A stretch of DNA of 64,000 nucleotides from Pseudomonas phage BRkr. The notes under the pieces were generated by a model, which saw only the letters and a program-made list of their open reading frames with translations, made no database searches and was not told the DNA's origin. The translations under genes were made by a program, and so were the position numbers. Shown piece after piece: positions 1 through 49,797 of this stretch; position 1 is the first letter of the stretch, and the number at the start of each line of letters is the position of its first letter. The stretch lies in the sequence record LC765218.1; one strand, given 5' to 3'.

Positions 1-73
1 GTCAGTTTCATAAACTCAGGACTAACAAATGTGAAATATACAGCGTTCTGTGTTGGGGTTAGATGATTCATAT

Positions 74-361
74 TTACTCCGTATGTTTGAGATAGGTTTC
101 AACTGCTTTAAGACCTTTATTAAAGAACATGGTTTCAACATAAGTAATATTACTTATACTCTCCTCGATAAGTTCCCATTTGATACAACGTGTAATAGCG
201 TTGATTGTAATATCTAATCCGTTTGGGAATAGGGTTACTTCATCAGTAAGGCGAATCCAATCGGGAGCTTTCGCTCCATTACGTAAGCGGGGACTAAACG
301 TAAGATTGTAGAGTTTCTGCAATGGTTCTTTTAGTAGCGCTTTTTGTTCTTGGTGTTCCAT
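74..361 (-). CDS. hypothetical protein (95 aa)
   Basis: Complete ORF in the six-frame track. GAGAG Shine-Dalgarno 6 nt upstream of the ATG at 359-361. No recognisable motifs. Confidence 0.4.
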   Translation of the reverse strand: MEHQEQKALLKEPLQKLYNLTFSPRLRNGAKAPDWIRLTDEVTLFPNGLDITINAITRCIKWELIEESISNITYVETMFFNKGLKAVETYLKHTE

Positions 362-370
362 GCGTTTCTC

Positions 371-592
371 TCAAAGACATTTGAATATAAAAATAGAATA
401 CTCGTTATGATCAGTAACTTTCAAAACGTTATCCGTTCGTAGTATCTCGTGTCTACGGTATTTGTTTTCCAAAATGTCTAAGTGTGATATGCATTGTTCT
501 TTATTTTCAAAATGAATGGTCGATTCTTTTGTAGATGTAATTCCAAACCAGCCAACATGTATTGCCAGAACAAACATTGTCGCGATGTTCAT
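371..592 (-). CDS. hypothetical small protein (74 aa, hydrophobic N-terminus)
   Basis: Internal ATG of the 371..691 ORF, whose longer version would overlap the tRNA. No Shine-Dalgarno. The ORF may be spurious. Confidence 0.2.
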   Translation of the reverse strand: MNIATMFVLAIHVGWFGITSTKESTIHFENKEQCISHLDILENKYRRHEILRTDNVLKVTDHNEYSIFIFKCL

Positions 593-647
593 GTTTATTA
601 TCCCGATGCAATATAATACCCTCCATAACGGAGGGCTTATATTTAAA

Positions 648-723
648 TGGTCGGAGTGGAGAGACTCGAACTCCCGACATCCTGCTCCCAAAGCAGGCGC
701 GCTACCAACTGCGCTACACTCCG
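648..723 (-). tRNA. tRNA-Pro (anticodon UGG), CCA encoded
   Basis: Hand-folded reverse complement: acceptor CGGAGTG/CACTCCG, D-stem GCGC/GCGC, anticodon stem CCTGC/GCAGG with loop TTTGGGA (anticodon TGG), T-arm GGGAG-TTCGAGT-CTCCC, 3' ACCA. Confidence 0.8.
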
Positions 724-729
724 TAAATT

Positions 730-815
730 TGGTACCCGGTGTCGGACTCGAACCGACACGGCTTTCGCCGAGAGATTTTAAGTCTCTTGTGTACTACCAA
801 TTTCACCAACCGGGC
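730..815 (-). tRNA. tRNA-Leu (anticodon UAA), type II with long variable arm, CCA encoded
   Basis: Reverse complement folds with acceptor GCCCGGT/ACCGGGT (G1-U72 wobble), anticodon stem AGAGA/TCTCT with loop CTTAAAA (anticodon TAA), variable arm GGCGAAAGCCGT, T-arm GTCGG-TTCGAGT-CCGAC, 3' ACCA. Confidence 0.75.
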
Positions 816-855
816 ATTTCTTCTCTATAAATAGAGGCTCCTCAGTATTATTCAA

Positions 856-884
856 CATAAAGCCTCCCAGTGGGAGGCGATATG
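856..884 (-). terminator. intrinsic terminator hairpin (GCCTCCC/GGGAGGC) followed by a U-tract on the minus-strand RNA
   Basis: Inverted repeat gcctcccagtgggaggc flanked by cataaag, whose reverse complement is cuuuaug, downstream of the minus-strand gene 1055..1807. Confidence 0.5.
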
Positions 885-1054
885 CTCATCAACACAACAA
901 GGAGAAAGATACAACTTACCAACTGAAAGGAGGGGATCACAACAGGGAGTCTTACTTCCTAGAAGCCAGCTGGAAGGGTTGCTGGCTCCGGCGCGCTGTG
1001 ATCCTAGTAAAGATGAGGAGTGACATCTCTACATATCATTACATAGCTGGTAAG

Positions 1055-1807
1055 TTATTCTTCTTCGCTAACGAAAGCAATACGCTCTTCGATATTTTCC
1101 AGAGTTATTACTTCATCGAAGTTCTCAGTAGAAACACTTGTGAAATTATGTTCTTTATCAATTTGCGCTAGTCCAATCTGCATCACTTTGCGAGCGTCTG
1201 GGCTAAGTCCATCAATACCTGCTGCTTCAATAGCAGCTTTATATCCAGTGAGGGTAGTAAGAGAAGACATGTTCTTTTCCTCTTTTTTGTTTCTTACATG
1301 AATGAAGATTATAGGTCCTTCAGATTTATACATTTCAAAACCTGGAGTTAGGATAATCTCATTATTAATATTTTTAGCTACATAACCACCACGGATAACC
1401 TTGCTGATATAACTGTTCAAACCAGCACCGCCATCAGCGAAGTATTTCATGTCCTGTAGTTGTATTTCAGTGATACTTTTTAGTGTATAAAGATAAAACA
1501 CCTCTCCACCGAATTCTACAAGCATCCAATCAGGACCATATTTGTAACTCTTTACATTAGATCTTCCGGAGCGATTGTAGTAAGTCCACATATCGTCCGT
1601 ATTATTAATAAGCTCAGTTATGGTTGGTGGTTGGATAACGTTATCTGTATCTGGTTCTACCCATACATCGTAAGGACGATCCGCGCGTGGATTGTTAACT
1701 TCATCAAACAACTGATTGATGAGGTCATCCATTTCCGCTTCGAGTGATATCGCGTATCGCAGCAAAAGGTTAATGTTAGGCATGATTGTTACCTTTAGAA
1801 TTGACAT
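1055..1807 (-). CDS. hypothetical protein (250 aa)
   Basis: Complete ORF. Its ATG sits directly after the terminator hairpin and the CTTTATGTT motif on the minus strand. Acidic C-terminus. Confidence 0.55.
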   Translation of the reverse strand: MSILKVTIMPNINLLLRYAISLEAEMDDLINQLFDEVNNPRADRPYDVWVEPDTDNVIQPPTITELINNTDDMWTYYNRSGRSNVKSYKYGPDWMLVEFGGEVFYLYTLKSITEIQLQDMKYFADGGAGLNSYISKVIRGGYVAKNINNEIILTPGFEMYKSEGPIIFIHVRNKKEEKNMSSLTTLTGYKAAIEAAGIDGLSPDARKVMQIGLAQIDKEHNFTSVSTENFDEVITLENIEERIAFVSEEE

Positions 1808-1813
1808 AACATA

Positions 1814-1836
1814 AAGCCCTCCCGAAGGAGAGCTAT
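1814..1836 (-). terminator. intrinsic terminator hairpin
   Basis: On the minus-strand RNA, GCUCUCC-UUCG-GGAGGGC including one U-G wobble, then CUUUAUGUU. Sits after gene 1841..2254. Confidence 0.5.
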
Positions 1837-1840
1837 ATGT

Positions 1841-2254
1841 TTACATTACTTCTCGGGTACCATCTACCATTTCAAGAACTGTAATCGTTTTACCGACCTC
1901 TGGTTTCTTGTTAGCAACAGTTTGCACCAGATGTTGCTTTCCATCAGCTTCGATAATCATTTTACACTGGAATGTTTCAGTAGCCCCTATCTCGTTTCCG
2001 ACAGCACCGCCAGCGGCGCCTCCAACGAGACCACCAATCCAGCCGCCTGATTTACCGAAGATAGCTCTACCCAACATTGCACCGCCAACTGCACCTGCTG
2101 TACCGCCAACAGTTGCACCAACGATACTGTTATCTTTAGTAACCAGTTGACACTCAGACTGCTTTACGATACCAGTGGTAGAAGATTTGATCTCCCCTGC
2201 TGCAAATGCAATTAGAGGGAACATTAGAGTTACAGCAAGAGTGATCTTTTTCAT
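1841..2254 (-). CDS. secreted glycine-zipper protein (signal peptide, GxxxG-rich, 17-kDa-antigen/Slp-like)
   Basis: N-terminal MKKITLAVTLMFPLIAFAAG looks like a signal peptide. A long GxxxG glycine-zipper run follows (GATVGGTAGAVGGAMLGRAIFGKSGGWIGGLVGGAAGGAVG). Its ATG overlaps the nrdB stop as TAATG. Confidence 0.6.
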   Translation of the reverse strand: MKKITLAVTLMFPLIAFAAGEIKSSTTGIVKQSECQLVTKDNSIVGATVGGTAGAVGGAMLGRAIFGKSGGWIGGLVGGAAGGAVGNEIGATETFQCKMIIEADGKQHLVQTVANKKPEVGKTITVLEMVDGTREVM

Positions 2255-3411
2255 TACAGGAAATCCACATCAAATTCGTCTTTCTCACCACGGGTGTCAA
2301 GAAGGTTAACCATGTAGTCACCTTTCTCTGCTTCTTGTGGAGAGGCTTGAGTTGCCGAAATGTCGAGATATTCTACCATGAACGGCAGTGGGTTATCTTC
2401 AGGGAATTCCAGAGGAACACCAGTAAGTTCCAGGTATTCTGCCGAATGCTTTTCCAGAGTCTCCGGAATAATATTCAGGAAAGTACCAGCAGCGTTACCA
2501 TTAAACAGAACCCATTGGAACAGTTTTTGTGCGTTAACGCCAGCCAAGCTACGACCTTCGGAGAACAGGTATTTAACCCAAGTAACTTCAGTCCGAATGA
2601 TTTCCCAGAACAGTTCAACGATTTGTGGTTTACATTGCTCATAAGCAGTCATACCACGTTCAGTTTTCAGAAGAGCCTTGATGACTTCTTGTCCGTATTG
2701 GGCATGGATCTCGAATTCATCTTGAGCGATCTTCTTAACCGCTTCACCGATTTGTTGGAACAGGCCAGTTTTACAAATAGCAAAAGTCACTGCAAACGAT
2801 GCCATGAACTGAATACGTTCCAACATATAAAGTGCAATGAAGAACATGAAGATCTTATTGTAAGTTTCCTGGTTGTTGGGTACTTGCTTCAATGCATAGG
2901 CGTGAGATGTATCGTGTGCTTCACCCATTACACGTGCAACAGCAACCATGCGTTCCTGTGCTTCTTCAACGCGCAGGATTTCATCGAGAATAACACGCGG
3001 ATTCTTAAACGAACCCCGGACAATCTCGGAATAAGTAAGGGCGTGAACATCTTCGTTATCATTGATTCGAACATAACCAGTCCAAATCCTAGAGTCAGTC
3101 ATTACAGGACCAAGAATATTCACAATTGCTCGACTAGCTACAGAGTCAGCTTCCCATTGCCATGCAAGGGTTTTGATCATCATGTCGTAAGTCGATTTAT
3201 TGCATGTTTCAAATTCGATAAGACATTGTTGGAAGTCGAATTCCAATTCGTCCCAGTCAAGCTTACGTAGACGTTTGTAGAGAGACCATGGTACAGGGAA
3301 GTGAGTATGAATAGAATCTAGGAGTCCAGGTTCTTGACCAAGGATAATTTCAGGTACGTCATAGTCGGTCTTTTCTACGTTAAAGATTTTCTTGGGGAGC
3401 TTGTCAGTCAT
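2254..3411 (-). CDS. nrdB: ribonucleotide reductase class Ia small subunit
   Basis: Ferritin-like diiron/tyrosyl-radical segments are visible: EAHDTSHAYAL, FFIALYMLERIQFMASFAVTFAI, EFEIHAQYG. ATG at 3411 is preceded by AAGGAAA. The track ORF extends to a TTG at 3462. Confidence 0.85.
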   Translation of the reverse strand: MTDKLPKKIFNVEKTDYDVPEIILGQEPGLLDSIHTHFPVPWSLYKRLRKLDWDELEFDFQQCLIEFETCNKSTYDMMIKTLAWQWEADSVASRAIVNILGPVMTDSRIWTGYVRINDNEDVHALTYSEIVRGSFKNPRVILDEILRVEEAQERMVAVARVMGEAHDTSHAYALKQVPNNQETYNKIFMFFIALYMLERIQFMASFAVTFAICKTGLFQQIGEAVKKIAQDEFEIHAQYGQEVIKALLKTERGMTAYEQCKPQIVELFWEIIRTEVTWVKYLFSEGRSLAGVNAQKLFQWVLFNGNAAGTFLNIIPETLEKHSAEYLELTGVPLEFPEDNPLPFMVEYLDISATQASPQEAEKGDYMVNLLDTRGEKDEFDVDFL

Positions 3412-3517
3412 TTCAGTTTCCTTGTTGATGTCAAAATTGCTTACAATTGATATGGTTATCAAGTAAAATTATAATAACATCTTGTTAGAATATTAAAGGG
3501 CAGCTAAGAGCACGATC

Positions 3518-4465
3518 ATGTTTGAATTATTGTTATCATTACCGAAGAGAGCACCGAAGCTGACATACACCTACGATTTAGTGACATTAACACCAAGACC
3601 AACAATAGCTAATCATGCCACGGCCTGTGAACATGCTGGAAAATATATGTTGGTGGTGGACTTAACGCATCTACTCGTTCTATAAACAACTTCGATATTT
3701 ACGATATTGAAAATGATGCATGGACAGTTGGTGCAGTACTACCTGGTCAAAGACGATCGGGTGTAATGGCAGCTGACGGTAATCGCGTTATTTACGTCGG
3801 TGGGTATAACCAAGGTGGTAACCCAGTAGGACCGTTCTCTACAATCTACACTTACAATACAGCTAATAATACTTGGGGAACTTCAAACACGAGCGACGTA
3901 GCGCGATTTGAAGCTACAGGTATCCCGTTAGCAGGTGGACAGGTTATTGACTACTCTGGTTGGTCTGGTACGACAATGTTACCCAACGCTAGTCGTATTG
4001 ATGTTAATCCAACTGGTGGTGTTAGTACAACCCCATTACCAAATATACCGGCAGCTTATAGAACCCGTTATGCTGGTTCGTGCCGTAATGGAAATGACAT
4101 TTATATTGGTGGTGGATTAGACTCTGCTGGTTCTCCAGTAGATACATTCTTTTTACTATAGCCCCGTCACGAATACATTTAGGGCACTTGCACCGTTGCC
4201 AGTAAAACTAAATGCGGTTCAGTTGATGTGGCATAACAATGAAGTTATTGCTTATCTAGTAAATAGTGGTATATGGGCATATAACCCTGGTTCAAATGAA
4301 TGGAGACCTGTAAATGAAACTCCATCTGGAAATGTACATGGTTTATCGACCGGTGTACAAGTTAATAACGAACTATATCTAATCGGTGGTTTTGATACAG
4401 CTCGTCATGGATACCTTTCTAAGATTGTACCAACCTTGGTAGCAATAGATGACGTTCCAGTGTGA
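3518..4465 (+). pseudogene. frameshift-disrupted Kelch/beta-propeller-repeat gene (paralogue of 34085..35002)
   Basis: Three consecutive reading frames together encode a Kelch-like repeat protein: 3518-3685 frame 2, about 3631-4161 frame 1, 4196-4465 frame 2. N-terminus MFELLLSL... parallels MFESLLATL... of the intact minus-strand paralogue. Motifs YDIENDAWT, IYVGGYNQGG and LYLIGGFD are typical. Confidence 0.4.
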
Positions 4466-4469
4466 CATC

Positions 4470-4500
4470 ATAAAGCCCTCCCCTAAAGGGAGGGCGATAT
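4470..4500. terminator. bidirectional intrinsic terminator hairpin
   Basis: GCCCTCCC-ctaaa-GGGAGGGC 8-bp stem, flanked by cataaa and gatatat, between convergent 3' ends at 4465 and 4505. Confidence 0.5.
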
Positions 4501-4504
4501 ATCG

Positions 4505-6790
4505 TTACAGAGTACAGGCACCGCCAGCACATCCTTTCGAACCATCGTTATTTTCAAACGCAGATTCAAGAGCAGCCAGGGACAGGTTAGCAGAAGTCTC
4601 GGTATTCATGTAGTATCGAGTCTTCATACCAAGCTTAACTTGCAGGAAGTAGTCGCGAAGCATTTCGTTGGAGCTAATCTTCTCATCGCCGATAATCCGA
4701 CGATACAGGTCAGCAGAAATACCTTGGTCGGTCCATTTCTGGAAGATAGCGTAAGCTTCGATCATGTCCTTAGTTGGAATATCATAAGCCAGTTCGTACT
4801 TATACGCTTTGTCGTCTCCAAACGGGGCAGCCCAGTTAATCAGGTTATTGTTGTCCGACTTATTGATAACCAGACGACGAACCGGGTAAATAGAGTTAGC
4901 ACCACCTACCGCTTTCGAGGAGGCTTCACCTGGCATGTATGCAACAAGTACCGAGTGGCCGATACCACCGTTAGCAATGATTTCCTTACGAAGTTTCTCC
5001 CAGTTGTAAATGTTCTCAAACCCACCTGGTACGATTTCATCTACATTTCGTTTGTAGGTATCAAGAGGCAGCCAACCTTCAGGCCACAGAGTCTTATGTA
5101 TCCACGGTGCAAGACCACGTTCTTTAGAGATCCGCAGTGATGCCTCGATCAGGTGATACATGTGGCGTTCTGCAACAAAGTGCATCTCGCGCTTACCGGC
5201 CTCAGAAGAATACGCCAGACCGGCGCGGGCCATGTGTGTAGCAAGACCCATGATACCAACCCCAGCACTCATACGCTGTTTGGCAGTGAAACCGAGATGA
5301 GGGAAAGCATATTCTGCATTGAGGATACAATAATCAATCATCTTCAGTGCATAGTAAGCCGCTTTACGATAAGTTGCTGCATCAGGGATATTGTCAACAA
5401 CGATTGCTGCGAGAGAACAGGTAGCAATCTCACCTCGACCATGGTCTTCCTCAGAATAGAGGTCACGCATGTCGTAGTAAGGTTTGGTTGGTTCAGCAAT
5501 TTCCATGCAGAGGTTCGAACTATGAATCGGCTCTTTAAACGGAGTATGGCGATTCATTTCATCGATTTGAGCAGTATATGCAACACCAGTTTCATAGGCT
5601 TCGTTAAGAACCGTTTTTAGAAGATCCCGTGCATCGATGTATGTCTTAGTGAAATTCGGATCTGCTTCATACTTCTCGTAGAGTTCTTTGAACTTAGCTT
5701 GATCTTTACCGTAGAATGCTTCGAACAGGTCAGGTGCAGTATACGGGTTAAATACGAAGACCTTTTCATTCTTAGCTGCTTTAGCTGCGAACAGAACGTT
5801 ACCCATTGCTGCATAGTGAAGATCACGATTCTTACGGTCTTCAGTAGAGCGAGGGTTACGGAGTTGAGAGATCATATCCGCTTCTGGGTCAAAGAGACTA
5901 TAGAAGCTAGTTACAGCACCGCCGCGACCATTTTGCAGGTTAGCTCGAACAGCCTTACCCATTACATCGATGTAAGGTTTCTTACCTTGGTGAACGATGA
6001 GACCGTTACGTACAGGATCCCCAACAGAACGGGACATGATGTTTACACCAATACCAGCCGAAGACTGGGTCATGATGTTCGCGATGTAGTCTCCGATAGC
6101 CAACGAAGTACCGTTGTCGCCAGAAGCGAAGAGGCAGCAAGAAGCAAAGCCCCGCAGTACAGTACCAAGATTAACGTAGTTAGGAGTCGGCGCCGACAAT
6201 TGTTTTTGAGAGAACAATTCATAATAGTTCTTCACATGTTCCAGCCGCTCAGCTTTAGGTTCTTTCTCAGAAAGAGCCATTGCCATCCGCATGTATGTAA
6301 ACTGCTGAGTTTCATACTCTTTTCCAGACACGCGATTACGAAGGGAATACTTACCACGGATATGATGGAGAGCGAAATGGGGGGAATTGAAATCAAGATC
6401 ATGATTAATCATCTCCTGGATAGCCTGATATTCATCATCGCTATAATCCAGTTTGATCATTACTCCATCTTCATGCATTTTGGCATGAAGTTGTTTTACT
6501 GTCGGAATACCGTCCAGTCCATAGATTTTCTTACGCAGAAATACTGCGTACAGACGACCAGCCATTAGGTAATACGACCAGGTCTTACGATTAAGACATT
6601 CTTCGATCAGCCAACCCTGGAACTCCTGAGATGTAACCTTTTTGGGCTTACCGCTTACAGCACCTAGTACGATACTACCCCAGTCAACTTTGTTGCCCAG
6701 ACGTGCCGCTGCCCACTCACCCCAGCCATTTGCTTTCTCGTTATCGAAGGGTTGTTCAGTGCCATCCAGTTTGATAATAGTTTCAATCAT
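4505..6790 (-). CDS. nrdA: ribonucleotide reductase class Ia large subunit
   Basis: 761 aa. An N-terminal ATP-cone-like region is followed by a catalytic core with the NLCMEI active-site region, and the C-terminal tail carries a radical-transfer cysteine pair (...GCAGGACTL). Adjacent to nrdB. Confidence 0.9.
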   Translation of the reverse strand: MIETIIKLDGTEQPFDNEKANGWGEWAAARLGNKVDWGSIVLGAVSGKPKKVTSQEFQGWLIEECLNRKTWSYYLMAGRLYAVFLRKKIYGLDGIPTVKQLHAKMHEDGVMIKLDYSDDEYQAIQEMINHDLDFNSPHFALHHIRGKYSLRNRVSGKEYETQQFTYMRMAMALSEKEPKAERLEHVKNYYELFSQKQLSAPTPNYVNLGTVLRGFASCCLFASGDNGTSLAIGDYIANIMTQSSAGIGVNIMSRSVGDPVRNGLIVHQGKKPYIDVMGKAVRANLQNGRGGAVTSFYSLFDPEADMISQLRNPRSTEDRKNRDLHYAAMGNVLFAAKAAKNEKVFVFNPYTAPDLFEAFYGKDQAKFKELYEKYEADPNFTKTYIDARDLLKTVLNEAYETGVAYTAQIDEMNRHTPFKEPIHSSNLCMEIAEPTKPYYDMRDLYSEEDHGRGEIATCSLAAIVVDNIPDAATYRKAAYYALKMIDYCILNAEYAFPHLGFTAKQRMSAGVGIMGLATHMARAGLAYSSEAGKREMHFVAERHMYHLIEASLRISKERGLAPWIHKTLWPEGWLPLDTYKRNVDEIVPGGFENIYNWEKLRKEIIANGGIGHSVLVAYMPGEASSKAVGGANSIYPVRRLVINKSDNNNLINWAAPFGDDKAYKYELAYDIPTKDMIEAYAIFQKWTDQGISADLYRRIIGDEKISSNEMLRDYFLQVKLGMKTRYYMNTETSANLSLAALESAFENNDGSKGCAGGACTL

Positions 6791-6986: not shown

Positions 6987-7340
6987 ATGCCTTATTATCA
7001 AGCTATTCTACCACTCGTAGAAGCTCACCAATGGTTTAAAAATGGCGACCATCCCATGGACCGCACCGTTAATGGAATTAACGAAGGGGCTATCGTTGGA
7101 CGGCATATTAGCCATGGTAGTGTACAAGGTGGAATGATCTGTCCTGACTGTAACTGTAAGATGGCCCTTCATGGGATCCTTAAAGTTCGAACTGACGATA
7201 GTCCCGCTGTTGTTTGTCCAGGTGACTATATTGAGTTTATTCGGGATGACAAGAAACGTATTCTGAGTTACAGGCTTCATCATAAAAAAGAATTTGAAGC
7301 GATCTTTGAAAAAGTTGTTACCAATGGAGTTAAGAAATGA
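6987..7340 (+). CDS. hypothetical Cys-rich protein (117 aa)
   Basis: ATG at 6987 is preceded by GGAGA. CPDCNC...CPGD could bind zinc. The track ORF starts 14 codons upstream. Confidence 0.5.
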   Translation: MPYYQAILPLVEAHQWFKNGDHPMDRTVNGINEGAIVGRHISHGSVQGGMICPDCNCKMALHGILKVRTDDSPAVVCPGDYIEFIRDDKKRILSYRLHHKKEFEAIFEKVVTNGVKK

Positions 7341-7918
7341 CCGCTGTTAATTACCCGTTTGTAGATACCATGGATAAATTTGATAAGATCACAAAAGGTC
7401 TTATTTTTGAACATCAAGCCGAGGGTGAGAGCGAAACGATGATTTCGCATGAACTCTCTATTCTTGATAATGACGGTGTTGTTCATTCACTTCATTTCAG
7501 TCAAATCACTAGCCTCATTGATACCATCACTGGTAAGCACCCTTCACTCGAACTCCCGCCACAACTATTCCTTATCACGCAATATCTGCTAGAGGATCTT
7601 AAGGAAGTTGGAGAGAAAGGATTTGTAATTACCGAATATTTTATCGATGTCCTTCCCACTGGTAATAAAGCTATTTTCCGTGGTACGCTGGCACATAAAT
7701 CGACAGTTGATGGACATCCTGACTTTGATCCGTCTTCCACGATTAGTAAAAAAGAGTTTGAGTTCTCTCTTAATCAATTCAGTATTCTACAGCAGATTGC
7801 TTTGAGTCATTGCATCGCTAATCTACACGAGGAGTGTGCTGGGTTCCGTGGCACTTTCGATGTGGAATATACTTTCCATTGGACGCCCTTTGCCTTTAAC
7901 GTTAAATTCTCCGAGTAA
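7337..7918 (+). CDS. hypothetical protein (193 aa)
   Basis: ATGA overlap with the upstream stop. GGAG Shine-Dalgarno. Confidence 0.55.
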   Translation: MTAVNYPFVDTMDKFDKITKGLIFEHQAEGESETMISHELSILDNDGVVHSLHFSQITSLIDTITGKHPSLELPPQLFLITQYLLEDLKEVGEKGFVITEYFIDVLPTGNKAIFRGTLAHKSTVDGHPDFDPSSTISKKEFEFSLNQFSILQQIALSHCIANLHEECAGFRGTFDVEYTFHWTPFAFNVKFSE

Positions 7919-27854: not shown

Positions 27855-27900
27855 CATAAAGCCCTCTCCTTCGGGAGAGGGTTATTCCACTTTATTTTTT
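27855..27900 (+). terminator. intrinsic terminator with T8 run
   Basis: GCCCTCTCC-TTCG-GGAGAGGG then ttattccactttatttttttt. Confidence 0.55.
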
Positions 27901-28160
27901 TCGCGGGGCCGGCCGCGCATAAGTAACTTGTTGTTAAAGAATAGATATCTTTAATAAAGAGTATTTTCCTTATTAAATGCTTTTTCTTTAAAAGAAATTT
28001 TATATAAATAGTAATTATATGTGGGGGGGACCCTTTGGGGGGGTCCCATATATAATTTCCTTATTCTTTAGTACGGGGTAGGGAAACAAAAACGACTATG
28101 TCGCAAAACTTGGAAGAGGGTGTCGTGGGGCTACAAAGCCCCATCCACCCAGTAGTAAAA

Positions 28161-28181
28161 ATTATTTCAAATCTATATTAC
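28161..28181 (+). promoter_or_regulatory. early-promoter-like element ATTATTTCAAATCTATATTAC
   Basis: TTTCAAATCTATAT subclass, shared with the elements at 35931 and 45951. Confidence 0.5.
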
Positions 28182-28220
28182 TTAGTTGAATATTAACTCG
28201 TAAAACTGGAAAAACCGAAA

Positions 28221-28442
28221 ATGAAAACATTGCTCCCTGATTCTTTGTTCTTGGTTAACAACGACGAAGACGTCCATGAGTTGATCAAACAGATGTACAT
28301 TAAGTTCAAAGTCGACATGGTCTCCCCTAAGACGATTCTCTGTTCTTATCCGTCAGTGATAATGGCAACGGTTAGTAAAGAGTATCAATCTCCAACGACC
28401 CTGATTATTCGTGTGGTACCCATTTCTGAAATTCTAACCTGA
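28221..28442 (+). CDS. hypothetical protein (73 aa)
   Basis: First ORF after the promoter element. Confidence 0.4.
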   Translation: MKTLLPDSLFLVNNDEDVHELIKQMYIKFKVDMVSPKTILCSYPSVIMATVSKEYQSPTTLIIRVVPISEILT

Positions 28443-28452
28443 GGAAGTACAA

Positions 28453-28581
28453 ATGAGCGCTATCAATTACAACCGCCTGATGCAACATGCTATCGACAAC
28501 GGTGGCAAATTGGAACTGGTTATCCATGCAAGTGGTAACGGGTTTACTTTCTTGGTCCTTCCTAAAGAGGAATCGAAATGA
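28453..28581 (+). CDS. hypothetical small protein (42 aa)
   Basis: Not in the track because it is under 60 aa. GAGGAAG Shine-Dalgarno. Its stop overlaps the next start as ATGA, so it is translationally coupled. Confidence 0.35.
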   Translation: MSAINYNRLMQHAIDNGGKLELVIHASGNGFTFLVLPKEESK

Positions 28582-29342
28582 AATCTATTGGCGAAGCACT
28601 TCCAGCCATCAAAGATATCTTCAAGAACTTCCTGGTTATTGAAAACGTAGATGAAATCACCTTTGGTGCAGTTAACCCAGTTACCAACGATATCTTTCTG
28701 AAAGTATCGGAATGGAACGTAACACAGGAAGACTTCGAACTGACTTACAAACCTAGTGAGACAAATATTGAAATCACTAAACAGAATCTAGGTTCGTTCT
28801 TCAGTGTAATTGGTCAACGTAATACAGTTCATCAATTGGGAGAACATTATCAGAAGCTTATTGAACTGATGATTGCTGAAGGATATAAATTCTTCGATGT
28901 CCAAAGTTCTTGGAGCTTCGATACCGGTGTTCATTCGGTTAGTTATTATAAACCCAGTGAGTGGATCAAACAGGAAATCGGTCGTATTACTTTCTACAGT
29001 AATGATCGAGTATATCAGCTTCTAGTTCCTGAGAATACGTCATCTGCGATTAAACATGTCGAAGTTGATGAATACTGTCGTCCAAAGACAATCACGTTCT
29101 TGGATCTGAATACACTGAAGGTTAGTGAACGACACGAGTTTGACTTCGAGTCAATTCCGAAGATTTATCGGATAACGCCGACAATCAGGAATTTTGCTAA
29201 TCTGGATAGTGTATCCATTGTTAACACCATGGTTCACGATAACTGTACGGTAACCTTGATGGTAGGTTACTATCTTGGAGTCGATGTTCAGGTTAAAGTC
29301 TATCTCAATTCGTTCAAAGACCAAGAGCTAGTTCTTAGCTAA
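28578..29342 (+). CDS. hypothetical protein (254 aa)
   Basis: Complete ORF upstream of PhuZ. Confidence 0.5.
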   Translation: MKSIGEALPAIKDIFKNFLVIENVDEITFGAVNPVTNDIFLKVSEWNVTQEDFELTYKPSETNIEITKQNLGSFFSVIGQRNTVHQLGEHYQKLIELMIAEGYKFFDVQSSWSFDTGVHSVSYYKPSEWIKQEIGRITFYSNDRVYQLLVPENTSSAIKHVEVDEYCRPKTITFLDLNTLKVSERHEFDFESIPKIYRITPTIRNFANLDSVSIVNTMVHDNCTVTLMVGYYLGVDVQVKVYLNSFKDQELVLS

Positions 29343-29488
29343 CAAATACCGGAGTTACGGTTAATATGTGTGACAATGGAGCGTTTGATAGTATTCATTT
29401 TGGGATGAACAGCAAGACTGTGCTCAATGAACAAGAACGCGACACGCTAGTTACAATTCAAGAAGGTTAATCAAGAGGAAACGTGGAA

Positions 29489-30436
29489 ATGACTAAAGTA
29501 AAAACTCGTGTATACTGCTGTGGTGGTGCTGGTCTGAATATTGGTGTAAACCTTCAATGGCATCCGGATCTGGTATACATTGACACCTGCGATAAGAACG
29601 TAAGTTCTAGTCATGATATCGATCGTGTCTTTTTGACCGAGGGTACTCGTGGGGCAGGTAAGAACCGTGCATTCATCATGCCTAAGGTTCGCCATCAGAT
29701 TGCACCTTTCCTTGAACGATATCCAGCTGGCGATTTCAATATCGTCCTGTTTTCTATGGGCGGTGGTTCTGGTTCTGTTCTTGGTCCGCTGATTGTATCG
29801 GCTCTGGCTAAAGCTGGTGAAACTGTAATTCCGGTCGTTGTCAGTGGTATTGAATCTACTGAGGTTCTGCAAAACGATATCGATACCATGAAGACTCTGG
29901 AAGGTATCGCTGCTGCAACCAACACCCCGATCAACATCTGTCCGATCGAAAACGTGAACGGCGTTCCGTATTCCGAAATCGACAAAGATGCGGTATTTGC
30001 TGTCCATGCTCTGATTTACCTGTCTAATCAGAAACATGAACGTCTCGATGTACTTGATCTGGATCACTGGGCACGCTTCACTAGTAAGCATAGTTACATC
30101 CAACCGCAACTGTGTGAACTGCATATCCATACTTCTCGTCAAGAAGCAGCTTCTGTCCCTGAGATGATTTCTGTCGCATCCCTGTACACAGATGCTTCCA
30201 AAGAAGTAGCTTATGGTAATCCGTTTGTTCGGACTGTGGGTATCGCATCCCCTGACGACGAAGACGCTCTGTCTGAGCAACTGCACTTCGTTATCAACTC
30301 GGTTGGTATCCAAGAGCGGATTAAGTCTCTCCTGGATCAAAAACAGGAACATCATCGTCAGCAAGTTCGTTACACCCAACGTGCTGCGATCGTTGATATC
30401 GATGACAACCGTTCTGATGATGGTTTCGTCCTCTAA
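29489..30436 (+). CDS. phuZ: phage tubulin PhuZ (FtsZ/tubulin-like GTPase)
   Basis: N-terminal nucleotide-binding VYCCGGAGLNIG and the tubulin signature loop SMGGGSGSVLGPL (GGGTGSG-like). About 315 aa, as I recall for the 201phi2-1 PhuZ (from memory). Acidic C-terminal tail DIDDNRSDDGFVL, resembling the acidic tail used for filament contacts. Alternative GTG start at 29483. Confidence 0.8.
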   Translation: MTKVKTRVYCCGGAGLNIGVNLQWHPDLVYIDTCDKNVSSSHDIDRVFLTEGTRGAGKNRAFIMPKVRHQIAPFLERYPAGDFNIVLFSMGGGSGSVLGPLIVSALAKAGETVIPVVVSGIESTEVLQNDIDTMKTLEGIAAATNTPINICPIENVNGVPYSEIDKDAVFAVHALIYLSNQKHERLDVLDLDHWARFTSKHSYIQPQLCELHIHTSRQEAASVPEMISVASLYTDASKEVAYGNPFVRTVGIASPDDEDALSEQLHFVINSVGIQERIKSLLDQKQEHHRQQVRYTQRAAIVDIDDNRSDDGFVL

Positions 30437-30441
30437 ATAAC

Positions 30442-30467
30442 TGGGGAGCTTCGGCTCCCCTTTTATT
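30442..30467 (+). terminator. intrinsic terminator
   Basis: GGGGAGC-TTCG-GCTCCCC then TTTTATT, directly after phuZ. Confidence 0.55.
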
Positions 30468-30482
30468 CCGTCTGGAGGTTTC

Positions 30483-30725
30483 ATGAGTTGGATCTTAGCT
30501 ACCATTGTCTCTACAGGAGCTATTGGCGAATTACCTGTAGTTAAAGAAGAAGAAGTTTCTGTGTCTTCCATTGAGGTGTGTAGAGCCATCATCGACCAAC
30601 ACAGTTCTTTGTATACCCGGAATAATTGGAATATCAGTTACCACCGTGGCGATAACAGTGAACTCCACGTTATAAACATGAATCGAACGACAAAGATTAT
30701 ATTTGTTTGTAAGGAGAAGAAATGA
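30483..30725 (+). CDS. hypothetical protein (80 aa)
   Basis: Small ORF. Confidence 0.35.
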   Translation: MSWILATIVSTGAIGELPVVKEEEVSVSSIEVCRAIIDQHSSLYTRNNWNISYHRGDNSELHVINMNRTTKIIFVCKEKK

Positions 30726-33510: not shown

Positions 33511-33537
33511 TTCAAACCAATTTAAAGGCTATATTAC
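33511..33537 (+). promoter_or_regulatory. early-promoter-like element ...AAAGGCTATATTAC
   Basis: TATATTAC core 34 nt upstream of the ATG at 33571. Confidence 0.45.
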
Positions 33538-34040: not shown

Positions 34041-34092
34041 CATAAAGCCCCTACCTTCGGGTAGGGGCTATGCTTATTTTTTTTTTATTTTA
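34041..34092. terminator. bidirectional intrinsic terminator
   Basis: GCCCCTACC-TTCG-GGTAGGGGC, flanked by CATAAAG and TATGCTTATTTTTTTTTTTATTTT. The same 22-nt stem-loop recurs at 44821. Confidence 0.6.
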
Positions 34093-47835: not shown

Positions 47836-47862
47836 TTAAAAAAAATCTGAGATCTATATAAC
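47836..47862 (+). promoter_or_regulatory. early-promoter-like element AAAAAAAATCTGAGATCTATATAAC upstream of chimallin
   Basis: AGATCT subclass. The shell gene is expected to be expressed immediately on infection. Confidence 0.55.
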
Positions 47863-47931: not shown

Positions 47932-49797
47932 ATGATTCGTGATACCGAAACTCAAAACACTCAAGCTCAAGCCAACAACGCTCCGGCTCAAGCTGCTCCG
48001 CGCGCACAACAGGAAGCTCCTCGTATGCAACAAGCTGCACCTCAAGCTCTGCAAGGCGGTATTTCCGGCCTGCCGAACATGTTTAAACGTTCCGGTCGTA
48101 CTGATGGCGGCGACGCCCGTGCGAGCGAAGCGCTGCAAGTAATGACCCGCGTTGGCAAAGATGCCATCGACCATCAAGACCTGGAAAACGATTTCCAGAT
48201 TCTGCGTTTCGACCGTGATGCCAACCGTGTTGGCTACTCCGCGCTGCTGATCGTCAAGCACGCTGCTGGTGGTAACGGTATCATCGTAGTTCGTCCGCTG
48301 ATCATGCCGAACCCGGCAATCACCCTGCCTCCGCGTCAGGTTACCATTCAGAACGGCATGAGCCACGATCGCTTCGATGTAGACGTCGAAGTACAAGACG
48401 TATTCACCGTTCAGTACTGGAACCGCATCTGCGAATTCGTTCGTCAGACCACCGGTCGTCCGAAGGCTGAAGTACACCCGGCTGGACCGCTGCCGATCCC
48501 GGCTGAATTCGATCTGAAAGACGAAGTCCTGCTGAAAGACATTCTGATCCGTTCCGTCAACCTGTGTGACGACGTTCTGGCTAAGAAAGCTGGCGAGACT
48601 CCGTTCCAGATCGCAATGCTGCGCGGCCAAGATGAAACCCTGGCTGCCAAGATGGACTTCTCCGGTCGTCCGGTAATGGACAGCGTCGGTAACCCGATCA
48701 AGTCCGACATCGTGATCAGCCTGAACCGTACCAAGAAACAAGGTCAACAAGAGAACGAGTTCTACGAAGCAGACACCATGCTTAACCAGGTGTCGGTACA
48801 AGTAACCCTGGAGTACACCCCCACTCCGCAAGCCCAGATGTTCGGTCAACAGACCCAACCGCTGCCGCCGTTCTCCCCGGCGATCCTGGTAACCGACATT
48901 CGTCAGGCCAACTGGATCAAGGCAAACACTCTGGAACTGTACCTCTTCGCTCTGTCGAACGCCTTCCGCGTAACCGCTGGCCAGGCTTGGGCTCGTAAGT
49001 TCCTGCCTCAAGTTGGTAAAGTTAAAGACCTGGGTGACATCGGTGCTCTGGGTTGGCTGTCCAACCTGGGTAAGAAGATCGATACCAAGTCCGATACCTT
49101 CACCGATCAGAACTTCGCTGATCTGATGCTGAGCATGGTTCGTCCGAACCCGTCCTTCCTGATCGATCTGGATCGCATGGGCGACAACGCAGCACTGGAC
49201 GTAATCTTCCTGGATGCCATGGGTGGCCCGAACCAACAGAAAGCTACTGCCGCGATCATTCGCGCTGTACAGAACCTGGTTGGTGGTGGCTTCGAGCGCT
49301 TCTTCGACTTCAACACTCAGCCGATCATTGCATCGACTGGCACTGAAGTGAACAAGGGCTACTACTGGGATGGCGACGAGAAACGTGACCGTCGTGACCT
49401 GGATGCACTGGGTGCACTGAACGCTGCTGAGGGCAACCAACAAGAGTGGATGTCCTGGTACGGTACTCAATGCAACCCGAACATCCATCCGGAACTGCGT
49501 AACAAGCAATCCAAGAACTACGACCGTGCGTTCCTGGGTGCTGTAACCTACACCACTCGTGCACATCGTGGTATCTTCAACCCGAAGTTCATCGAGGGTC
49601 TGGATAAGGCGATTGCTGCTGCTGGTCTGACTGTAGCAATGGACAACGTTGCACAGGTCTTCGGTGCTCAGCGCTTCGTTGGCAACACCATGATCCAAGA
49701 CTTCGCTGTCGGTTCTACCGCACAGGTTGTCAACGGCATGGGCGTTGGTGGCGGCTACCAGATGAACATGGTAGGTTCGGTTGGTACTCTGTACTAA
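47932..49797 (+). CDS. chmA: chimallin, phage-nucleus shell protein (phiKZ gp54-like)
   Basis: 621 aa. N-terminal Q/A/P-rich low-complexity region, about 45 aa, as in chimallin N-terminal segments, and a Gly-rich C-terminal tail. Immediately upstream of the beta-prime N-terminal fragment, matching phiKZ gp54/gp55 synteny. Extreme host-like codon optimisation and an early-type promoter. No direct sequence comparison was possible. Confidence 0.7.
   Translation: MIRDTETQNTQAQANNAPAQAAPRAQQEAPRMQQAAPQALQGGISGLPNMFKRSGRTDGGDARASEALQVMTRVGKDAIDHQDLENDFQILRFDRDANRVGYSALLIVKHAAGGNGIIVVRPLIMPNPAITLPPRQVTIQNGMSHDRFDVDVEVQDVFTVQYWNRICEFVRQTTGRPKAEVHPAGPLPIPAEFDLKDEVLLKDILIRSVNLCDDVLAKKAGETPFQIAMLRGQDETLAAKMDFSGRPVMDSVGNPIKSDIVISLNRTKKQGQQENEFYEADTMLNQVSVQVTLEYTPTPQAQMFGQQTQPLPPFSPAILVTDIRQANWIKANTLELYLFALSNAFRVTAGQAWARKFLPQVGKVKDLGDIGALGWLSNLGKKIDTKSDTFTDQNFADLMLSMVRPNPSFLIDLDRMGDNAALDVIFLDAMGGPNQQKATAAIIRAVQNLVGGGFERFFDFNTQPIIASTGTEVNKGYYWDGDEKRDRRDLDALGALNAAEGNQQEWMSWYGTQCNPNIHPELRNKQSKNYDRAFLGAVTYTTRAHRGIFNPKFIEGLDKAIAAAGLTVAMDNVAQVFGAQRFVGNTMIQDFAVGSTAQVVNGMGVGGGYQMNMVGSVGTLY

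Follow-up and report, generated by a model that had tools for sequence, protein, structure and literature searches.

The 64,000-nucleotide stretch of Pseudomonas phage BRkr DNA analysed here (sequence record LC765218.1, one strand; referred to below as the window) contains a gene which almost certainly encodes the phage tubulin PhuZ. The gene is the following:

29489..30436, + strand: phuZ, encoding a 315-residue GTPase of the tubulin/FtsZ superfamily, assigned as a PhuZ orthologue on the basis of homology, residue conservation and selection

The open reading frame (ORF) begins with ATG and ends with TAA, and there is a ribosome-binding site, GAGGA, 9 nucleotides 5' of the ATG. A program-made list of ORFs starts this frame earlier, at a GTG (29483); the RefSeq start is the ATG, and because the GTG codon abuts the GAGGA ribosome-binding site it is not considered to be the start of phuZ. 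The predicted length of 315 residues equals that of the PhuZ proteins of phages 201phi2-1 and PhiPA3, in agreement with the first-pass annotation of this DNA, in which the length was taken to fit PhuZ. The two motifs noted there are likewise present, CCGGAGLNIG at residues 10–19 and SMGGGSGS at residues 90–97. The C-terminus had been described as rich in DDxxD. It is indeed acidic, ending in IVDIDDNRSDDGFVL with five aspartates within the final 13 residues, but the literal DDxxD is not found and the pattern is DxDDxxxDD.

On the opposite strand, a 373-residue ORF (29471–30592, −) spans the whole of phuZ. No Pfam family was matched, and for this reason it was rejected as a real gene and is treated as a shadow of phuZ.

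Identification of the protein as PhuZ

It is almost beyond doubt, from the homology set out here, that positions 29489–30436 encode PhuZ, the tubulin of a jumbo phage that infects Pseudomonas aeruginosa, forms a nucleus and belongs to the genus Pawinskivirus (PA1C/PS119XW group). The predicted protein matches PHROG 4733, 'tubulin PhuZ', from end to end (residues 1–315, E-value 5.3e-105). The best matches among solved structures are to 201phi2-1 PhuZ (3R4V, 3RB8 and 3J5V; E ~2e-90, residues 4–314), and the structure 3ZBP of phiKZ gp39 is matched with an E-value of 7e-63. The E-values for the PHROG and for the 201phi2-1 structures leave no room for a chance similarity. In Pfam, the family PF22334 (TubZ_C_2, a phage tubulin-like C-terminal domain) is matched over its complete profile (1–88 of 88), at 140.4 bits against a cutoff of 27. 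Alignment to 201phi2-1 PhuZ (PhuZ201) had been proposed as a check, with its gene number, gp59, correctly given; a global alignment gives 49.5% identity with a single gap of one residue. Identity is higher to PhiPA3 PhuZ (69.8%) and lower to phiKZ gp39 (~37%). The original proposal of a PhuZ-type phage tubulin is thus upheld by full-length homology to all three of these proteins, together with the GTPase loops, T7 aspartates, tail and PF22334 domain, and with the chimallin and ChmB genes found elsewhere in the window (see below).

The same protein is already known by name. It is 100% identical in phages PS119XW, PA1C, phiHQ, HHBS36_1 and phiLBG22, and in RefSeq NC_070882 (PS119XW) this exact sequence is gp028 (YP_010660768.1), labelled 'tubulin PhuZ'. 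The identification therefore has little importance beyond correct annotation, PhuZ being well studied. It does confirm that several GenBank records still call PhuZ a 'hypothetical protein', namely PA1C, phiHQ and MN103543. These five phages also share with the window the gene order, the 34-residue remnant and the terminator described below. The 4 kb around phuZ has 98.6–98.9% DNA identity to them and 82% to HPP-Temi, and the window as a whole is ~99% identical to Pawinskivirus genomes of ~300 kb. Within phuZ, PS119XW differs from the window by six synonymous nucleotides only.

Some observations count against the identification. The generic Pfam tubulin GTPase family, PF00091, scores 26.7 bits, under its gathering cutoff of 33, and structure chains of FtsZ and TubZ, to which comparison had also been proposed, match marginally (E 0.03–0.3). 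Since these matches are below threshold or marginal, membership of the superfamily rests on the solved PhuZ structures; we note that such scores are typical of PhuZ. AlphaFold2, run on the single sequence without an alignment, returned a mean pLDDT (predicted local distance difference test) of 36.0 and a pTM (predicted template modelling score) of 0.36, values too low for the model to be of use in judging the fold. We nevertheless infer a tubulin/FtsZ fold from the full-length identity of 49.5% to a protein with crystal and cryo-electron microscopy structures, which would appear ample.

Functional residues, comparison with known systems and proposed function

The residues expected to carry the function have been further analysed. 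G12, G13 and G15 of the T1 loop and G91-G92-G93-S94-G95-S96 of the T4 loop align with PhuZ201, and D187 and D190 of the T7 loop have identical numbering in the same alignment. D190A is a hydrolysis-dead mutant in both 201phi2-1 and PhiPA3 PhuZ (PMC4244570, PMC7804931). Six PhuZ proteins representing five genera were aligned; among the positions at which none of them varies are G12, G13, G15, G91, G92, S94, G95, N129, D187, D190, R217, D305, D306 and G312. The tail IVDIDDNRSDDGFVL aligns with IIDADDNVDEDGMV of PhuZ201, with D303, D305, D306 and D311 kept, E310 replaced by Asp and D309 by Ser. In filaments of the two phage tubulins with known structures, this acidic 'knuckle' is seen in ordered form, docked on the subunit next to it (PMC3678025).

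Comparison with HPP-Temi gives 131 synonymous and 22 nonsynonymous differences in phuZ, a ratio of nonsynonymous to synonymous substitution rates (dN/dS) of 0.03. The differences from PS119XW are all synonymous as well, and phuZ is under strong purifying selection.

The closest experimentally studied relative is PhiPA3 PhuZ (gp028, YP_009217111.1), also of 315 residues. Its T1 loop begins with CCGG as here, D190 is shared, and the tail has the form IDIDDNRxDDGFV; its gene occupies the same genome position, ~22.3 kb into the record, and the locus has a promoter motif ahead of gp024 and a terminator hairpin after phuZ, as here. It differs in the T1 loop, which is GGTG (here GGAG), in having gp027 intact at 109 residues (here the 34-residue remnant), and in its middle cistrons, gp025 and gp026, whose slot is occupied here by an unrelated 254-residue ORF. 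In PhiPA3 it has been shown by experiment that a treadmilling PhuZ spindle centres the nucleus, and that D190A is dominant negative (PMC7804931).

The founding member, PhuZ201, agrees with the protein here in D187, D190 and the numbering of the acidic knuckle, and its gene is also followed by a hairpin terminator, although the stem is fully swapped (CCCCTCC / GGAGGGG). It differs at about half of its residues, and its phage infects P. chlororaphis / P. atacamensis. More distant is phiKZ gp39 (PhuZ, alias 'TubZ'; 3ZBP, 3ZBQ), in which the acidic knuckle likewise contacts the adjacent subunit (PMC3678025); the phiKZ-type proteins have a 12-residue insertion after the DxxxxN segment. The phiKZ-like phage SL2 also has a UUCG hairpin 3' of phuZ. 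PhuZ of the phiKZ type and that of PhiPA3 are divergent enough for non-productive co-assembly (PMC7804931). At 70% identity to PhiPA3 and 37% to phiKZ, the protein described here represents a third PhuZ lineage on P. aeruginosa, and so bears on a published proposal in which PhuZ proteins that have diverged serve as factors of incompatibility or speciation in co-infection.

Further proteins with a bearing on the function are encoded elsewhere in the window:

47932..49797, + strand: chimallin (ChmA), the nuclear-shell protein (PHROG 4795, E 1e-198; Pfam PF25677, 1101.8 bits)
7337..7918, + strand: ChmB (PA1C gp2), shell-associated (PDB 7UYX, 'Bacteriophage PA1C gp2', E 7e-130)

The label in PHROGs for ChmB is 'unknown function' only; ChmB has been proposed to cooperate with PhuZ in capsid docking (PMC10643120, PMC12676376). 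By analogy, the chimallin shell is probably the structure that PhuZ positions, and would thus be its functional partner within the same window. PA1C is treated as a nucleus-forming phage (PMC10643120), and this, together with the presence of chimallin and ChmB, supports the functional reading of PhuZ.

On the basis of homology to the PhuZ proteins of 201phi2-1, PhiPA3 and phiKZ, we propose that the protein would bind guanosine triphosphate (GTP) through its T1 (GGAG) and T4 (GGGSGS) loops and polymerise head to tail, with D187 and D190 in the T7 loop of one subunit completing the GTPase site of the subunit that follows. The acidic knuckle at the C-terminus (D303, D305, D306, D310 and D311) would pack on the neighbouring subunit and stabilise the filament. 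The filaments would then form a bipolar spindle which, early in infection, uses dynamic instability to centre and rotate the chimallin shell, and which later brings procapsids to the shell by treadmilling. For the protein here, polymerisation and spindle function are thus suggested by analogy. GTP-dependent three-stranded polar filaments, dynamic instability, treadmilling and centring of the nucleus are known for 201phi2-1, PhiPA3 and phiKZ (PMC4244570, PMC7804931, PMC8314001), and PhuZ spindles centre and rotate the phage nucleus and deliver capsids to it (PMC8314001, PMC7804931).

Two points argue for caution here. Residue 14, in the T1 loop, is Ala (GGAG) both here and in HPP-Temi, and Thr (GGTG) in 201phi2-1 and PhiPA3; it appears to be the sole notable departure among the functional residues checked. 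In addition, phiKZ can form plaques without phuZ, which tolerates transposon insertion and deletion in that phage (PMC12676376), and the contribution of phuZ to fitness may therefore be modest here.

These same two facts, together with the deletion suffered in this clade by the adjoining upstream gene, could be taken to mean that the protein is the relic of a tubulin, in decay or without catalytic activity, and perhaps without dynamic filaments. That is extremely improbable: the ORF is uninterrupted, has the canonical length and is preceded by a good ribosome-binding site, all the catalytic and tail residues checked are kept, and both the dN/dS of 0.03 and the purely synonymous differences from PS119XW (six of six) point the other way.

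A different role would be that of a TubZ-type (type III) DNA-partition tubulin, which segregates a genome or plasmid-like replicon by means of a TubR adaptor and a tubC centromere and does not position a nucleus. FtsZ and TubZ belong to the same superfamily as PhuZ and have in common with it the G-box GGGxGxG and an acidic T7 residue. The top Pfam match carries the name TubZ_C_2, there are weak matches to the TubZ structures 4XCQ and 3V3T (E 0.08–0.1), and the phiKZ protein is called 'TubZ' by some authors (PMC3678025). However, the description of PF22334 is that of a phage tubulin-like C-terminal domain, its family being the PhuZ group, and true TubZ is matched some 90 orders of magnitude more weakly than PhuZ. 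No DNA-binding family, nor any other Pfam or PHROG family, was found in the neighbouring ORFs, where no search was aimed at centromere-like repeats. As chimallin and ChmB are also present in the window, we give this role hardly any credence. The protein is also distinguished from FtsZ, in that it has no match to the Pfam family FtsZ_C and its match to PF00091 is below the cutoff. A spindle-forming PhuZ remains the reading that we favour.

The proposed transcription unit and the gene deleted upstream of phuZ

The genes upstream of phuZ, and the signals that would delimit a common transcription unit, are as follows:

28155..28181, + strand: AT-rich early-promoter-like motif gtaaaaattatttcaaatcTATATTAC, the likely start of the unit ending with phuZ (by octamer enrichment; position weight matrix (PWM) score 44.3)
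28221..28442, + strand: 73-residue ORF, first cistron, homologue of PhiPA3 gp024 (BLASTP, 41% identity, E 5e-14)
28453..28581, + strand: 42-residue ORF, homologue of PhiPA3 gp024A (BLASTP, E 1e-9), whose stop overlaps the next start (ATGA)
28578..29342, + strand: 254-residue ORF, translationally coupled to the 42-residue ORF, present in HPP-Temi, in a slot that varies between genera
29366..29470, + strand: 34-residue ORF, deletion remnant of a gene of ~100 residues, unannotated in PS119XW
30443..30467, + strand (hairpin 30443–30460): intrinsic-terminator hairpin with a GC-rich stem of 7 bp, a UUCG tetraloop and a TTTTATT tail

The five ORFs of 73, 42, 254, 34 and 315 residues are separated by 10, −4, 23 and 18 nucleotides, and there is no hairpin between cistrons. 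Neither the 73- nor the 254-residue ORF has a Pfam or PHROG family. The matches to PhiPA3 gp024 and gp024A mark the 73- and 42-residue ORFs as conserved and, to judge from their sequences, genuine genes. These are the two coupled small ORFs which had been placed before phuZ; they are real, but they do not lie directly in front of it, since the 254- and 34-residue ORFs intervene. For the 254-residue ORF, no similarity was detected to the genes at the same position in PhiPA3 or Psa21, and its slot is a variable cargo position within an otherwise conserved unit.

The octamer TATATTAC occurs eight times in the window, compared to 2.35 copies expected, and none of 100 shuffles reached eight. The core of the phiKZ early promoter has this same sequence. 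Six of the copies are intergenic and on the + strand, 35–50 nucleotides before a start codon, and have in common an extended AT-rich motif, aaaaAtATnTnnaaATCTATATTAC. The positions are:

20728, 23277, 27025, 28174, 33530 and 57313, + strand: the six aaaaAtATnTnnaaATCTATATTAC sites used to build the PWM
45966 and 47855, + strand: weaker copies of aaaaAtATnTnnaaATCTATATTAC by PWM score, that at 47855 preceding chimallin

Since the PWM was built from these six sites, they score highly (38–49) by construction, the site of the phuZ unit having 44.3. In the gap that precedes phuZ the best score is −18, and between phuZ and the gene after it −25. Thus phuZ has no early-promoter-like motif of its own, the only such motif being 1.3 kb upstream, at 28174. 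PhiPA3 has the same early-type motif ahead of gp024. The early promoters of jumbo phages are AT-rich and highly conserved, are centred near −10, can be located bioinformatically, and give 5' untranslated regions of 31–40 nucleotides (PMC7598289, PMC8244752). By comparison with these, aaaaAtATnTnnaaATCTATATTAC is likely to be an early promoter of the virion RNA polymerase. A scan for sigma-70 promoters gave six matches, compared to 11.3 in shuffled sequences; this is uninformative, because the phage uses its own RNA polymerases.

It is therefore most likely that phuZ rides on a five-cistron early unit and has no private operon. In this unit phuZ would be the last gene, with a promoter near 28174, a start of transcription near 28185 and an end at the UUCG hairpin. 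PhuZ is known to be expressed early (PMC8314001). The 'own small operon' of the first-pass annotation thus holds as regards its closure by a terminator, but not as a unit private to phuZ. There are reservations: the promoter and terminator activities are deduced only from motif enrichment and covariation, and the middle and late promoters of jumbo phages have almost no recognisable consensus and are not predictable from sequence (PMC7598289), so that an extra promoter nearer to phuZ is possible.

Such a promoter would be needed if phuZ were a separately regulated monocistronic unit, transcribed from the 146-nucleotide gap between the 254-residue ORF and phuZ (29343–29488). A stretch of this length without an annotated gene does precede phuZ, a terminator follows directly, and a middle or late promoter nearly free of consensus could be hidden there (PMC7598289). 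The composition of the gap makes this unlikely. DNA alignment with HPP-Temi shows a single clean in-frame gap of 198 nucleotides (66 codons), with the flanks and the frame kept, and the same 198-nucleotide deletion is found in PS119XW. By protein alignment with the relatives, the 34-residue ORF keeps both termini of the intact 100-residue gene. Intact homologues lie directly 5' of phuZ in HPP-Temi (CDS0412, 100 residues), PhiPA3 (gp027, 109 residues) and 201phi2-1 (gp58, 110 residues), where they end 2–80 nucleotides before phuZ. The gap is therefore the in-frame deletion remnant of a coding gene, and not a conserved regulatory spacer. Moreover, the early-motif PWM reaches no more than −18 in it, and a structured RNA there was considered and rejected (z +0.69). 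The five-cistron unit is thus preferred. The 'separately tuned expression' proposed earlier is supported only in part, and is weakened by a unit that is shared and a hairpin that belongs to a generic family (see below).

No Pfam family was found for the remnant or for its intact homologues, and no PHROG for the remnant. It could be imagined that the gene of 100–110 residues found 5' of phuZ in three genera encodes a PhuZ accessory factor (for example a postulated adaptor, nucleator or pole anchor), of which the PA1C/PS119XW clade would be a natural in-frame deletion mutant. The sole basis for this idea is the conserved adjacency to phuZ, and we regard it as very doubtful. If it were true, phages of the PA1C/PS119XW clade would show that the factor is dispensable, or that its termini alone carry the function.

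The putative terminator hairpin and other features of the window

The strong terminator noted previously after phuZ is borne out. The sequence GGGGAGC-TTCG-GCTCCCC, followed by TTTTATT, begins 6 nucleotides past the phuZ stop, and the hairpin (30443–30467) has a folding energy of −18.7 to −23.9 kcal/mol, with z −3.0 to −4.5 against dinucleotide shuffles. A UUCG hairpin is found directly 3' of phuZ in HPP-Temi, PhiPA3, 201phi2-1, SL2 and Psa21 as well, five genera being represented in all. The alignment of the six sequences has 100% pairing, with compensatory double changes at six of the seven stem pairs. Its covariation score was reached by none of 500 shuffles and is much lower in slid registers. 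Since there are only five distinct sequences and the motif is common throughout the genome, this shows a conserved unit boundary and not strict orthology of the hairpin.

The other hairpins of this type in the window are included in the following list:

20675, 21940, 25821, 26982, 27862, 30443, 33469, 34046, 43128, 44820 and 50129, + strand: family of 11 intergenic UUCG hairpins with GC-rich stems

All 11 lie on the + strand, with TTTAT coming next in most of them. The phuZ terminator is thus a member of a generic, genome-wide hairpin family and is not specific to phuZ. This family agrees with the conserved terminator motifs of phiKZ (61 sites, PMC10914365) and of 201phi2-1 (motif A, 59 sites, PMC11512511). 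With the promoter motif, it provides a sequence-based sketch of the transcription units for a genus without a published transcriptome in the searchable literature. The hairpins at 34046 and 44820 share an identical 24 nucleotides. In several members the sequence that comes next is TTTATG or TATATG, and an overlap with TATG, an element described for the late promoters of phiKZ, is possible.

Past the phuZ hairpin, the next ORF begins after 23 nucleotides, and this implies a measure of read-through or a promoter within the region. As the next early-type motif is at 33530, the genes downstream presumably need read-through or unrecognised middle or late promoters.

Immediately upstream of the unit, ~290 nucleotides (27883–28173), bounded by a terminator hairpin on one side and the promoter-like motif on the other, have no annotated gene. 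They contain two G-rich hairpins, at ~28023–28049 and ~28128–28151, with no Rfam match, and could encode a small RNA or have a regulatory role. The Rfam scan found two tRNAs only.

In addition to these tRNAs, the window encodes a phage RNA polymerase beta subunit, a DNA polymerase, a tail sheath protein, the terminase large subunit, dihydrofolate reductase (DHFR) and the large subunit of ribonucleotide reductase. The last of these (4505–6790, −) is a single ORF of 761 residues, and the PA1C record lists two alpha-subunit features in the matching region. Positions 1–6790 are more divergent than the phuZ region, with 90–97% identity, and are matched in two pieces. The window spans the arbitrary point at which the PA1C and PS119XW records were linearised, and is contiguous in HHBS36_1 and phiHQ.

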